A stretch of 55,794 nt of DNA, filler included, from Ionaspis alba (GCA_964255285.1; 2 parts of 2 records of this genome joined end to end with filler, not necessarily neighbours in it); one strand, 5' to 3'. Positions 21,195 to 44,578 are shown, numbered from the whole stretch's first letter. Numbers and translations are program-made. The notes: generated by a model from the letters alone, not told the origin.

Positions 21195-21849
21195 TTTACC
21201 ATCTCTTTGAGATGGCATTCTGGGAGTGGCCGATTGCTTGATTTTTGTGTTAGCATAGGAGCCTGGCGAACGGTTTCGGTCATGTATATTCCTGCAAGGC
21301 GAGGCATGCGATATGTATTGTCTGTATGAGAAGATATCTCGGTCGCAGCCATGGGTTCCAGCGAGTTTGTGGGTTTTGGTGGTACTTGAGTTTTCAGTTC
21401 ATGCTTTGGGCTTTCGGGTGATCTGTTTCCAGCTGATTTGACTTTACAGGCAAATCACTCGACAATTTCTGTGAGAAGTAGAGATGTAGGACAGGAAGCG
21501 ATGAGAGACAGGCGTAGGAATTCTGGACAGTTGTAGCCTGCTGCATAATAGATCTGCAAGAAAATCGAGCGCCAACTAATGGTCCTAGATCACACATATG
21601 TGAATGCAATGCATAGACTACAAGTTTGACTGTGTCTCAACAACATCTGCCATTACTTAGGTTTATCAACATCGCCAGCAATCCAGAACCGTAGAAAAGG
21701 AACAAGCTCCTCTAACGCACGTAAGAGACTAAGGCCGACTCGCAAACGGCAATGTGTACGCCAGTCCTGCTCCCAGAAAGTTCGGCAGTGACTGTTTCAA
21801 CCTTGATCATGAATGCATTCTGTCCCGAAAGCCGTGCCCATGCAATACT

Positions 21850-22847
21850 CTAGCAACAACCGCCTGCCGATCCCGACTGAACTCCTTGACCCTGTCCTAC
21901 TTGTACTGTGGGTTTGTTGTTCACGGTCGTAGTGCCTATTCTCTCTTTGATCTGGCGGGCCATCGTTAAGAAGGCTTGCTCGACGTTCGAGGCGTTCTTG
22001 GCCGAGGTCTCGAGGAAGGGGATGCCGAGGCTGTCCGCGAATTCCTGTTTTTGAAAGATCATTTAGTACTGAACGAGAAAATGCAACGCGTCTAGGGACT
22101 GTTAGCCCTACCTTCGCCACAGTGTATTCCACAACTTTCTTGTCTGACATATCGCTCTTGTTGCCTACCAGCAACTTATTGACGCCCTCCGTTGCATAGC
22201 GATCAATTTCTTGAAGCCATTGCTTCACGTTGTTGAACGAGTCCATATCCGTCACATCGTAGACAACACAGATTCCATGTGCACCACGGTAGTAGGAAGA
22301 GGTGATAGTTCGGAATCGCTCTTGTCCAGCAGTGTCCCACTAGGATCGCGGTCAGATCAGGCTCTCAAGCTTTCATAGACTATCCGCTCACGATTTGTAA
22401 CTTCACCGTCTTCCCATCAAGCTCGATTGTCCGGATTTTCTGTGCTCTGCCATCAGCCTATCCTCTGGTGCTGCGCCACGGACTTCCGTCATAGGGGTAT
22501 CCATACAAAGTCAACACCGATTGTGGAGATATAGCTCTCCGTATATGTGTCATCCGCGAATCGCAAGAGCAAGCAAGACTTTCCGACACCCGAGTCACCA
22601 ATAAGGAGGAGCTTAAAAAGGTAGTCGTATCTGCCATAACGTTCTTGTCAGCTTCGGCATTCCATATCTCCAGAAGAGGACCAGAAGTGGCCGGGCCGAT
22701 TCAAAGTAGCTGTCTAGGCTACCTGTAAAATATGGCGAGGCACTCTATTTCGGCACGATGATCAGCATTGTTCTGGGATCAAGTTCCATAGCGTCTGGCC
22801 AGAAAGCCAACAAAATATACTACCGAGACGTACCACTCAGGATTCAT
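21850..22847 (-). CDS. ypt1: Rab1/Ypt1 GTPase; exons 22847-22837, 22630-22507, 22439-22392, 22339-22112, 22044-21850
   Basis: Spliced [28 protein letters not shown]...[12 protein letters not shown]...[20 protein letters not shown]...GNKSD...ETSAK...GGCC (geranylgeranylation motif). Confidence 0.97.
22631..22836 (-). other. Candidate [D3,4] stwintron: internal intron 22833-22745 nested in the donor of external intron 22836-22631
   Basis: Minus strand reads GA|GTG[GTACGT...GCTGAT...TAG]AGT...GCTGAC...CAG|ATAC. Removing the bracketed intron creates GTGAGT, and the second splice restores MNPEYDY. Confidence 0.85.
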
Positions 22848-23322
22848 GGTGATGATGTGCGAAAAGGCGGATCACAAAGGGGTCAAAGGGGAAGAGATCG
22901 AGATAGCTTAGGTCGTAGGGTTCGAGAATGTATCGGTGAGGTGGAAATCAGATGTCTTGATAGAGATCACGATGAATAGGTCACTCGTCAGTCGGTTGGA
23001 TGCTGAGCCCGATGACGGATTGGGAATGGTCAAGGGATCACGGATAATCATTTCACCTAACGTCAACGCCTTTCTGGGATCACTAGGGCGGCGGCTTCAA
23101 ACCGTCTGCCGCCAAGTCAAATTATGCTCCTATCTTGTAGCTAGCAGTAGTGGAAGCTGTGCCTTTGAAAATTGAAGTTTCGTTCCAGGAAAGTTCAGCA
23201 GTTGCGGACTTCTATATTGACCTCTAAAGTCGAGAACCTGTCACCAACCCCAATTTGTCCAGAACCAATCACCGTTTTGATGTCCGTCTCACAGAACGAG
23301 GCCCTACATTGGAAACAACGGT

Positions 23323-26300
23323 CTAGGTATACTCATGAGCTTTTAGCCAATCCAGCACCAGCTTCTCATCTCTCTCCTTGTAATTCGCATTTCCCCTCAC
23401 AGTATCAGATACCTGTACTAAGCCTCGATCATACCCTTTTGTGTCTTTATCCTCGAAGAACTTTGCAATGTCCCTCTCCACATCGTGACTGGCGAATTTG
23501 GACAGAGAAGTTTTGAGATATCGATCGATGACCACACTATTCGCCGACAGCTTCCCATGTACGGTGTCCCAATTCTTCTTTATATATGCCCAGAGTGCAT
23601 CCTTGGCCTTCGCGTTGTTCGCTAAAGCGATGGAGCCGGTGTGTGCATCTTGCACAGCAACCTTATCCGAGAACTGGAAGTCAAGGAAGTCGTTGACTAA
23701 ATCGGTTGACTGAACTTCTCCCATGGCTGTGAGACAAATTTCCTTTCCATCAATCGACGTTGTGGAGAGATATTCCTGCTTAACAGCCTCATACTCATCT
23801 GCACCTCCAGTCTTGACGGCAAGACGGAAGACGGCCAGACGCAGACTAGCGGGGATAGCTTCTTTGTCGCCAGAAGTATAGCCGGCGAAGCGTTTCTTTG
23901 CTTCATCAATGGTTCTGGCAGTTTATGAGCTGTGCACTCTCTGGAAGAAACAATGAAGCTTACTTTTGATGACCAGCCTCACCTGCGGAGCTAAGAAGCA
24001 ACGATCGAAGTCGAGTTGTCAAATTGTCCTCGTCAGGCGAGAAGTTCCAGCCTATCTTCTCCGCCGCAGGCGTGACTAGCTGTAGCTTGAGTTTCTTCAA
24101 ACCGGCAGATATGGACGAATTGTCGGAGAAGACAGACTGAACCTTTCCTAGAGAACTGGTGATTTGCGACCAAACACTTCCATCGTGAGCATCAAGGTTA
24201 CATTAGAAGTCTAGAGTGTTACTCACAACATATTCGTCTCACCCTTGAATTCTGTGCATAAGGCCAACAGCCCAGCAGTGGTACTATCTCCAGAAACAGC
24301 AAGGGCCGCAGCATCGCCAACCAGGCCAATTCGGTCCTGTACAGACAGTTTACCACTTGCGGCACCAAGCTTAGTCAAACGCGCTGCTGGATAGTTTGTG
24401 CGGTAGAAGCCGGTCAGGTCGGAATTGAGCTTATAGAACGATTCGTCAACATCGCGGATTGTCTCCTCTTTTGTCGTCAATGCCTCCGCAGAACCACTTC
24501 TGGACTTCGAATCTGTCTTCAGACCCAGTGGGATCCACCAAATGGTTTCATCTTCCTCTGGCTTGACGTCGCCAGTAGATAAGAACCTCGATTGACGAAC
24601 CCCAATCTGACCGGGCTCTTCGGCAACTGTGAGCACAGGAAATCCAATTTTCCGGATCCAAGGATCCTGAACCACGATGAGCAACAACCATCAGAGGGGC
24701 CCAACCGCCATACCATGAAAGCATTGACATCGGTGCTCGAAGCTTTGCTTAGAGCTGCCCATAGATCGTTCGTAGTAGCGTTGCCTTTGGGCTTCAGCTT
24801 CTTCAGTGCTCGAAATATTTGTGGCTCACTCACCATATGCATTTGCTTTCAAGTAGTCAGAAACTCCGCGAAGGAAGACCTCGACGCCAAGATGCCCGCT
24901 AAGCATGCGGATAACAGAGCTGCCTTTGAGATAGCTGATGGCATCGAATATTTGATCGATCTCCAGAGCGTCCTTGACAGGCACCTCGATGGGATGAGAA
25001 GATCTCAGAGAGTCCAGCTGTGATGCGGATTGCACGGCCTCGGTCTTTCCCAGTCAGCTACACAGTAGCTACACAGGAAAGCTTATAATGGTGGTGGATA
25101 GCACATACCACAAATTGTGCCCAGATGTCCCATTCTGTCCGCCAGCAACGTCAGCCAGTCTGAAGCACACCAATATGTGGTAAAAGTCTTACCCGGGTAG
25201 AGGTGATCTATGGCATACCAACCAACCCAAGTCGCAAAGCCCTCGTTTAGCCATAACTCGCTCCACCAGTCCATCGTGACGAGGTTTCCGAACCACTGAT
25301 GGGCAAGTTCTAGGAAGCATAAACACGCTGGTCCGATCAAATCATCAAGGCAATCCATACCATGTGCGACGACATAAGCAACTCTATTCTTGTACCTTGC
25401 GTCCGAGTTCTTCTCGTCAAAGAGGATGGCCGTAGTTCGGTAGGTAACTAGTCCCCAATTCTCCATGGCCCCGTGCGACTAGGAGTAACTGATTAGCGGA
25501 CGTTATTTTGGTAGAGCGAATAGACTTATTATTGGCTACGGAATCAGCCATCATAATCTATGACTGGCATGACATTACGGAAAGCAGGATACTCACAAAC
25601 TCATGCACAGCGAGCAGGTCGGCCTTCGGCAGTGGGTAGTCAATCTGGAATATCTAGAAGACCGTATCAGGATGCAGTTCTCGGAAAGGGACAGAAATTG
25701 AGGTACCTCCGAGAAATAGTCAATGATCTGATGGGCATTAAGAAGTCCAAAACGTCCCTGCTCCTTCAAACCTCGAGTCGTGTAGACTCTGACACGTAGT
25801 GGCTTGCCGTTGTAATTCCTCTTCGTAAAGTCTTCGACGTATTCGAAGTCTCCGAAAGCCCAGGAGAGTAGCTTCAAGCAGAACATCAACATTGAACACA
25901 CATTATACCCTTTGAACCAGGTAGCGGCACTTACATATGTGCTCATGACCGGAGTTCGTTCGAATGAGACGACTTTCAGACCATTCTTGCTATCCTGAGT
26001 ACCCTTTTCCGGCATGTTGCTCAAAGCTGTCTGGTCACTCGGAATTTCGATTTGGAAGTCGAAAGTCGCTTTGAGATTGGGCTCGTCAAAACATGGGACT
26101 GCTCTCCTCGCATCACACGATTCGAATTGAGTGCTGAACATGTAGTGGTACTCATCGTCCTTTGGTACTGAGGCGGCGGGAGCAACAGTCGGCTTATATC
26201 TGGACCTATAGAAGCCGGCCATAACATTGTTCATGATACCGCTATACTTGATCTCCAGGACCGCGTCTGATGATGGGGATAGCTCATTGGGAAACGCCAA

Positions 26301-26924
26301 TGTAGCTCGTTGTGCCTTCTCATCGTACGATATATCCGTGGCTTTCTGAGCTATGTATATGTCAACAGTGGTACGTGCTCTCTTTTACTTCTCAAATCGC
26401 ATACAGGAAACTTTGGAACTCGATATCTCGGCACTCTTGAGCTTCAACTGGTGAGCATTGATGACAATGTTCTTGGTTGCTTTCCGGATAGAGAGATCAA
26501 TCTTCACAGTCCCTTGGTAGCTGAAAGATCCTCCGAGCTCAAGATCATACAACGAGATGTCGTAATTGATCGGCTTGACACTATGAAGCTGTCAACCATA
26601 CTGTTTGTTCATTCACTCAACATTCCCCAAGACATACTCATTGGGCAACACATCTCTATCAATAGCGGCCATGGCTACCGATGTAGTATATCTTCGGGAA
26701 TATCGTGTTATAGAGGTGATTCTGGTGATTATCAAAGAACTGATTGATTCTGGTTGGTATGAAGGCTGGCAATAATGTCTGTAAATCGAGCAGGTGAATT
26801 TACGGATCGATCGACAACCTTGAGCATACCCCGCCCTGCAGCTTGCAGTCTGGATGAGAAAGGTATTGGTTCCTTTGAAACTTAATCGAACAGTGGATTG
26901 GAAGGATCGGGAAATCACGATCAT
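23323..26924 (-). CDS. ape2: M1 family zinc aminopeptidase (Ape2/puromycin-sensitive type); 13 exons; alternative starts at 26924 and 26672
   Basis: 'GFYRSRY', '[25 protein letters not shown]', '[12 protein letters not shown]', HEXXH '[29 protein letters not shown]', 'FDAISYLKG', ERAP1-like C-terminal domain. Confidence 0.93.
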
Positions 26925-44206: not shown

Positions 44207-44578
44207 TATTGTTTGGAAAGACTGATTTGTTCTCTGGAGATGCATATAAATGCGGGTCGAGCATAGCGAATGGCGTTTAGGGGAATTCCCCAATAAATGA
44301 AGGATCCGGGCAGGGGCAACAATGTACATATAGGAAACATACCACACCAGAATCTTGTTTCGTCATGGATGTTCCAAAGCAAAAGCTTGACTGAGGTCCT
44401 TCACACGAGACTGACATTCCTTTCTAAATGGTTTTGCCACGTAGTACAGGATTTATAGGATAGGGTTCTTGCAGATAGCCGAGACATAGATTAAGGTGAG
44501 AAGGAAAAGCTCTTCTTATGCTTATCATGTCTCTATAGAAAACAATGAATGAATATCTGTTCTACACGATAAAATAGG

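Follow-up and report, generated by a model that had tools for sequence, protein, structure and literature searches.

The first intervening sequence of the ypt1/Rab1 gene of Ionaspis alba is probably a donor-split stwintron, in which an inner intron separates positions 3 and 4 of the donor of an outer intron (type [D3,4]), such that the two would be removed in two successive steps. The core of this interpretation is supported by strong comparative evidence, chiefly the retention of the internal splicing signals in relatives whose intron bodies can no longer be aligned. The principle of the donor-split stwintron is already known; the [D3,4] split and the ypt1 host are what appears to be new, judged by the literature examined. 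The gene was analysed within a stretch of 55,794 nucleotides (filler included) made of two parts of the genome GCA_964255285.1 joined end to end, which we refer to as the window and from whose first letter all positions are counted.

The host gene

As read from the sequence, ypt1 consists of five exons on the minus strand, with the first intervening sequence, described in the following section, lying between exons 1 and 2:

22847-22837, minus strand: exon 1, ATGAATCCTGA, encoding Met-Asn-Pro and the first two bases of a Glu codon
22630-22507, minus strand: exon 2, starting A TAC GAC TAC, its first A completing the Glu codon; Pfam Ras
22506-22440, minus strand: intron 2, 67 nt, donor GTATGG
22439-22392, minus strand: exon 3
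22391-22340, minus strand: intron 3, 52 nt, donor GTGAGC
22339-22112, minus strand: exon 4
22111-22044, minus strand: intron 4, about 67-68 nt, donor GTAGGG
22043-21850, minus strand: exon 5, TAG stop included, the stop codon ending at 21850

The predicted product has a Pfam match to Ras, and the peptide encoded by exon 4 matches Rab1A (E 2.8e-40) and yeast Ypt1 (7e-37) ahead of the next subfamily, Rab10 (2.7e-26). We therefore identify the gene as ypt1/Rab1, the name under which it had entered the initial annotation. The yeast orthologue of ypt1 is essential.

Anatomy of the nested first intron

The initial annotation had described the region between exons 1 and 2 as a twin intron whose outer donor is interrupted by an inner intron, and every coordinate that it gave agrees with the minus-strand sequence. 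The elements are as follows:

22836-22631, minus strand: whole intervening sequence, 206 nt, opening with GTGGTACGT (GTG/GTACGT)
22836-22834, minus strand: GTG, positions 1-3 of the split outer donor
22833-22745, minus strand: inner intron, 89 nt, with donor GTACGT at 22833-22828
22766-22761, minus strand: inner branch motif GCTGAT, branch A at 22762
22747-22745, minus strand: inner acceptor TAG
22744-22742, minus strand: AGT, positions 4-6 of the split outer donor
22744-22631, minus strand: remainder of the outer intron on its 3' side, 114 nt (117 nt with GTG)
22652-22647, minus strand: outer branch motif GCTGAC, branch A at 22648
22633-22631, minus strand: outer acceptor CAG, used in a spliced contig

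Taken by itself, the inner unit is a complete canonical U2 intron of workable size, with donor, branch and acceptor. Its GCTGAT is followed by 13 nt devoid of AG and then by TAG, with 17 nt from the branch A to the intron end; the outer GCTGAC is followed by 13 nt and CAG. Since the inner TAG is succeeded directly by AGT, removal of the inner intron fuses GTG and AGT into GTGAGT, which, as had been proposed, forms the donor of a 117-nt outer intron, and removal of that intron in turn restores the GAA TAC GAC frame and a protein that starts MNPEYDYLFK. The sequence bears out, too, the earlier claim that joining GTACGT straight to the distal CAG leads to an immediate stop, as this junction reads GAG TGA and translation would end after four codons.

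These features lead us to propose the following course of splicing. U1 would recognise GTACGT, the only good 5' donor, situated 3 nt into the intervening sequence, and by intron definition this donor would pair with the nearest branch and acceptor (CTGAT...TAG), such that the 89-nt inner intron leaves first. GTG would then join AGT, so that exon 1 is followed at once by GTGAGT, and the 117-nt outer intron would leave in another standard reaction, with GCTGAC...CAG, to give CCT GA/A TAC and the complete protein start. The order of the steps and the intermediate RNA are what we infer here. Given that GTACGT spliced to the distal CAG encounters a stop, only the two-step route would make Ypt1.

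Two further candidates in this region were considered and rejected. An alternative start codon inside intron 1 was sought by eye, and upstream of exon 2 the reading frame meets a TGA with no in-frame ATG. The initial annotation had also raised CAG/GTAGCC, at 22725-22717 on the minus strand, as a possible additional recursive site; it occurs in only one of the seven loci compared below, that of the window, and the piece upstream of it, at about 25 nt, is below intron size and thus too short for an intron.

A spliced contig and the mature junction

Contigs from three sequencing runs (X1, X2 and X3) were aligned to positions 21600-23100, and one of them shows the mature form of the junction, in a type of data, assembled contigs, that drops rare forms. 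One 192-nt contig from run X1, which we presume (as a guess) to be RNA and which derives from a near relative of the window (4 mismatches in 192 nt), spans 22936-22837 and resumes at 22630-22539 with a depth of 3.4. It joins 22837 to 22630, and because it skips exactly 22631-22836 (206 nt), the mature junction GA/A is real, at least in the near relative. On the gene strand the skipped segment begins with GT and closes with AG, and the position of the junction is unambiguous. Among the contigs of the three runs, none carries the predicted intermediate junction, 22834 joined to 22744.

Run X2 showed no difference from the window over the compared stretch and may be where the window comes from. 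Run X3 contributed a more distant relative that, across the roughly 470 bases of the 3' exons that could be aligned, differs at 90 letters; its intron 1 could not be aligned at 80% likeness, and in the 30 letters of it that were available, exon 2 is preceded by ACTGAC...GCAG. This diverged relative is represented in X3 by a 20.6-kb contig, and the same run also holds several low-depth pieces identical to the window, so that X3 seems to contain more than one related organism.

The internal signals are conserved while the introns diverge

To examine relatives, metagenome contigs were scanned with the exon 4 peptide, which returned 80 loci, with 52 rows carrying a D[YF]LFK... motif; ATGAAYCCNGAGTRWGT was absent from all 80. 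A second contig collection, queried with the same peptide, gave small GTPases of prokaryotes and Asgard lineages along with two very short fragments, and no fungal ypt1 locus with context. An intron at the position seen in the window, after the GA of the Glu codon, was found in L001, L003, L004, L005, L006, L007 and L035. Six of these are scorable; L005 is cut inside the intron, with a matching 3' end present, and L002 lacks the region.

All six scorable relatives (7/7 with the window) have the same layout, namely GA/GTR followed by a canonical inner intron and then WGT. Next to the GTACGT of the window, the inner donors of the relatives are GTAAGT in three, GTATGT in two and GTACGA in L001, which has A at +6. 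The inner branch motif reads CTRAY in 6 of the 7 loci and TTAAC in the remaining one, lies 13-28 nt before a YAG, and is separated from that acceptor by a spacer without AG in every case (7/7). The triplet after the YAG is AGT in six loci and TGT in one (L001), yielding rebuilt donors of the form GTGAGT (three loci), GTAAGT (three) and GTATGT (one). Inner units measure 60-183 nt and outer units 78-136 nt, each half being at least 60 nt long in all seven loci. The first triplet of the intervening sequence is GTR throughout (7/7; GTG in the window, L004 and L035), and this alternation of A and G at the third base fits a donor position 3, unlike a Tyr codon. The outer branch is recovered as a strict CTRAY within 45 nt of the acceptor in 5/7 loci, and L003 and L007 have CTCAC in its place, in the last 30 nt of intron 1; if anything, the inner signals are cleaner than the outer ones.

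The initial annotation had named conservation of the internal TAG-AGT among relatives as a test of the nested reading, and YAG followed by WGT is indeed retained in all seven loci even though the intron bodies are unalignable. When six of the seven introns were aligned (L035 left out), mean column identity was 39%, the only invariant columns were GTRGTANG and the final AG, and the inner junctions fell in different columns. Between loci, identity at the third codon positions of exons 2 and 4 is 33-67%, and the encoded proteins are 97-100% identical with the exception of L035. With introns that cannot be aligned and third positions so diverged, the signals have been kept while their surroundings changed.

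The exceptional locus, L035 (2540-2710), is a far more diverged Rab1-like gene, with the N-terminus MASQE and a protein identity of about 82% across exons 2 and 4. It keeps the nested first intron as well as the positions of introns 2 and 3, and may be a paralogue or a fast-evolving lineage.

Alternative routes and controls

For comparison with control sequences, we defined a strict site as CTRAY 6-40 nt upstream of a YAG followed by WGT, with both halves at least 45 nt long, and a loose site as HAG followed by NGY, criteria that were chosen after the sequences had been seen. Each of the real introns contains exactly one strict site.

The 206 nt might instead constitute one long ordinary intron that is removed at once from the weak donor GTGGTA, which we regard as unlikely. 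The mature junction taken alone fits such a route equally well, GTRGTA is itself conserved in 7/7 loci, and first introns are often longer than others. In a variant of this explanation, U1 might bind the adjacent GTACGT while U5/U6 direct cleavage 3 nt upstream, which would make the internal signals irrelevant; other systems have been described in which U1 binds near the bond that is cleaved rather than at it. However, removal in one step leaves unexplained why seven unalignable introns should each contain exactly one branch motif, then a spacer free of AG, then YAG and WGT, with both halves always of workable intron size. Such a site is missing from six canonical introns of other relatives, located at a neighbouring position, which over 2,428 nt contained 0 strict and 0 loose sites.

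Donor composition likewise argues against direct use of the outermost hexamer. Relative to the consensus of a GURWGY donor, a DYURAY branch and an HAG acceptor, given in the parts of two stwintron papers that were examined (PMC7138796, PMC12403724), GTRGTA departs at positions 4, 5 and 6. Its +5 base is T in 7/7 loci, a letter found there in 0/24 donors from the remaining ypt1 introns of these loci (50-110 nt long), which have G at +5 in 24/24; once regenerated, the outer donor carries G at +5 in 7/7. The initial annotation had cautioned that degenerate donors are common here; this holds within ypt1 for positions +4 and +6, where deviations do occur, and fails for +5, where there are none. From these patterns we infer that GTRGTA would be non-functional as a donor before the inner intron is excised. 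The strong donor adjacent to it would, moreover, be expected to win the competition, and its pairing with the distal acceptor leads to a stop codon.

A combination of both routes, in which most transcripts are spliced in two steps and a fraction in one, either productively from GTGGTA or from GTACGT to give an MNPE-stop product, seems to us quite unlikely. Precedents come from the examined parts of the stwintron literature, where joint removal as one big intron is reported for [D1,2] stwintrons (Figure 1b, missplicing; PMC12403724) and the [D6,7] stwintron of L. starkeyi is spliced both ways (PMC7138796). A further point in its favour is the first base of exon 2 (22630 in the window), which is A, as part of the Glu codon GAA, in 8/8 loci with the nested form (L005 included); in relatives that are intronless or cDNA-like, both GAA and GAG encode the same Glu. 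As exon 2 starts with A, skipping of the inner acceptor always produces TAA or TGA immediately behind the Glu codon, a stop that might feed NMD, as the checkpoint suggested in the initial annotation would have it. Against a mixture of routes, the single spliced contig holds the correct junction only. If both routes were used, the unproductive MNPE-stop fraction would lower the output by a tunable amount.

The background frequency of the sites was taken from 2000 dinucleotide shuffles per locus, made from the interior of the intron concerned; because the loci are related and the criteria post hoc, these per-locus figures are not multiplied as a probability. That the internal signals are a chance resemblance within a long intron is exceedingly improbable, for although a loose candidate site arises in 8-17% of shuffled introns, a strict one does so in only 0.85-3.25% per locus (2.65% for the window), and the site is present in 7/7 loci and in 0/6 control introns.

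The extended motif GTRGTAHGT was also considered as a marker. The window holds 4 copies against 1.0 expected, a number reached by 1/100 shuffles; those outside ypt1 are at 25103-25111 (minus strand), 26368-26376 (plus strand) and 44337-44345 (minus strand). At 25103-25111 the motif consists of an ordinary Val codon and a GTATGT donor, in a gene whose translation has what we take to be an M1-type aminopeptidase motif, so that the motif alone marks nothing, and its use as a marker was rejected.

Relation to known stwintrons and recursive splicing

In the parts of the stwintron literature examined, the reported types are [D1,2], [D2,3], [D4,5], [D5,6], the "sensu lato" types [D6,7] and [D7,8], and [A2,3] (PMC7138796 and others), with examples including [D1,2] in lipS, [D2,3] in bioDA and [D5,6] in the reticulon-like gene rtnA (PMC5639578, PMC6616335, PMC9024468; Flipphi, Fekete, Scazzocchio and co-workers). 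Types beyond [D1,2] are rarely met, according to the portion examined of a paper by the stwintron group (PMC12403724). Within the same body of text [D3,4] is not among the types, the label itself being unsearchable as text owing to its comma, and a nested ypt1/Rab1 intron was found neither in the stwintron literature searched nor in wider searches, whose coverage of terms was uneven between papers. Both the split and the host had been new to the author of the initial annotation, in keeping with what the examined texts contain.

The ypt1 intron shares the main properties that these texts ascribe to donor-disrupted fungal stwintrons. A canonical U2 intron lies within the 6-nt donor of a second U2 intron, removal proceeds (in our model of ypt1, would proceed) through two consecutive standard reactions paired by intron definition, and one gene position is occupied across wide taxa while the intron bodies have diverged; the depth of the ypt1 case may be comparable as well. 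Compared with the [D1,2], [D2,3] and [D5,6] cases, it differs in the place of the split, between donor positions 3 and 4, and in its host, ypt1/Rab1; in addition, the intermediates of those cases were verified by RT-PCR in the accounts examined, whereas that of ypt1 is predicted from sequence. As far as the consulted part of the Lipomyces study goes, the [D4,5] case of Lipomyces lipofer and the [D6,7]/[D7,8] cases of L. starkeyi and L. suomiensis resemble ypt1 in having two donor-like elements a few bases apart at the 5' end, and in the length of the first intervening sequence, with a branch site and acceptor mid-way (PMC7138796). In the [D6,7]/[D7,8] cases, as there described, the outer donor is intact, and removal in one step is both possible and observed, while in ypt1 the outer donor has T at +5 and stays broken for as long as the inner intron is present.

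Animal recursive splicing at ratchet points also removes an intron piecewise, in that case a long one, with the 5' splice site rebuilt at the first junction. The donor rebuilt at a ratchet point follows the true exon end (AG/GTAAGT), as a zero-length exon. The ypt1 intron resembles this process in its piecewise removal and in the rebuilding of a donor at the junction of the first step, and differs from it in that three intronic bases (GTR) would stay on the exon as donor positions 1-3. The first-step junction accordingly falls 3 nt downstream of the exon end, at a site of the form YAG/WGT and not the YAG/GT of a ratchet point. Intron length does not account for the separate removal of the pieces in ypt1, which, at 89 and 117 nt, are both short, unlike long animal introns.

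A neighbouring intron position in distant relatives

Seven further loci (L009, L015, L024, L025, L031, L040 and L043), with exon 4 identities of 72-91%, have a single canonical intron within the Tyr codon that follows the Glu codon, for example L015:1770-1975 and L024:1644-2275. Five of the seven read ATGAAYCMNGARTA/GTRAGT...YAG/Y GAY (GARTA/GTRAGT); L043 has a variant, and exon 1 of L040 was not found. This intron is placed 14 nt after the A of the ATG, 3 nt downstream of the nested-form position. Its donor coincides with the inner donor of the stwintron, and the string GAGTAGTRAGT is common to both: the distant relatives read GAG TA as Glu and two thirds of Tyr, and the stwintron lineage reads GA and then the donor GTA.

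We raise, tentatively and with some doubt, the possibility that the inner intron is the ancient Rab1 intron and that the outer intron was added later in this fungal lineage. The old intron would thereby have become the inner one, through acquisition of a new outer 3' part and three new exonic bases, and its position in the mRNA would have shifted by one codon. Nesting of an older intron has been proposed for Lipomyces as 'stwintronisation', in the examined part of that work (PMC7138796). Nested introns have likewise been tied to a small displacement of intron position between orthologues in the stwintron-mediated 1-nt intron shift ([D1,2]/[A2,3]; PMC5587772, consulted in part). In ypt1 the displacement from the distant relatives is 3 nt, one codon, and an alternative [A]-type reading does not arise, because exon 2 starts with A. 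Alternatively, the shared string may be a coincidence, the Glu-Tyr codon pair happening to resemble a donor. Were the sliding interpretation true, the ypt1 stwintron would be a preserved record of a 3-nt slide in intron position through nesting, and a stwintron of great age, in a gene essential to yeast.

Significance

Stwintrons are the main natural evidence for the pairing of splice sites by intron definition in fungi, and a [D3,4] case fills the one gap in the series of donor types reported so far. To those concerned with intron evolution and fungal splicing the present case should be of moderate to high interest, and to other fields of modest interest. On the practical side, the start of ypt1 could be mis-called in genomes of this kind by gene callers that depend on canonical donors. 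Other eukaryotes have their ordinary intron at an offset of 3 nt, and this renders the debated sliding of introns testable on one universal gene. Finally, as Rab1/Ypt1 is a highly conserved gene, loss of an internal signal should meet strong negative selection, and such selection would explain the retention of the nested intron across lineages whose synonymous sites are near saturation.
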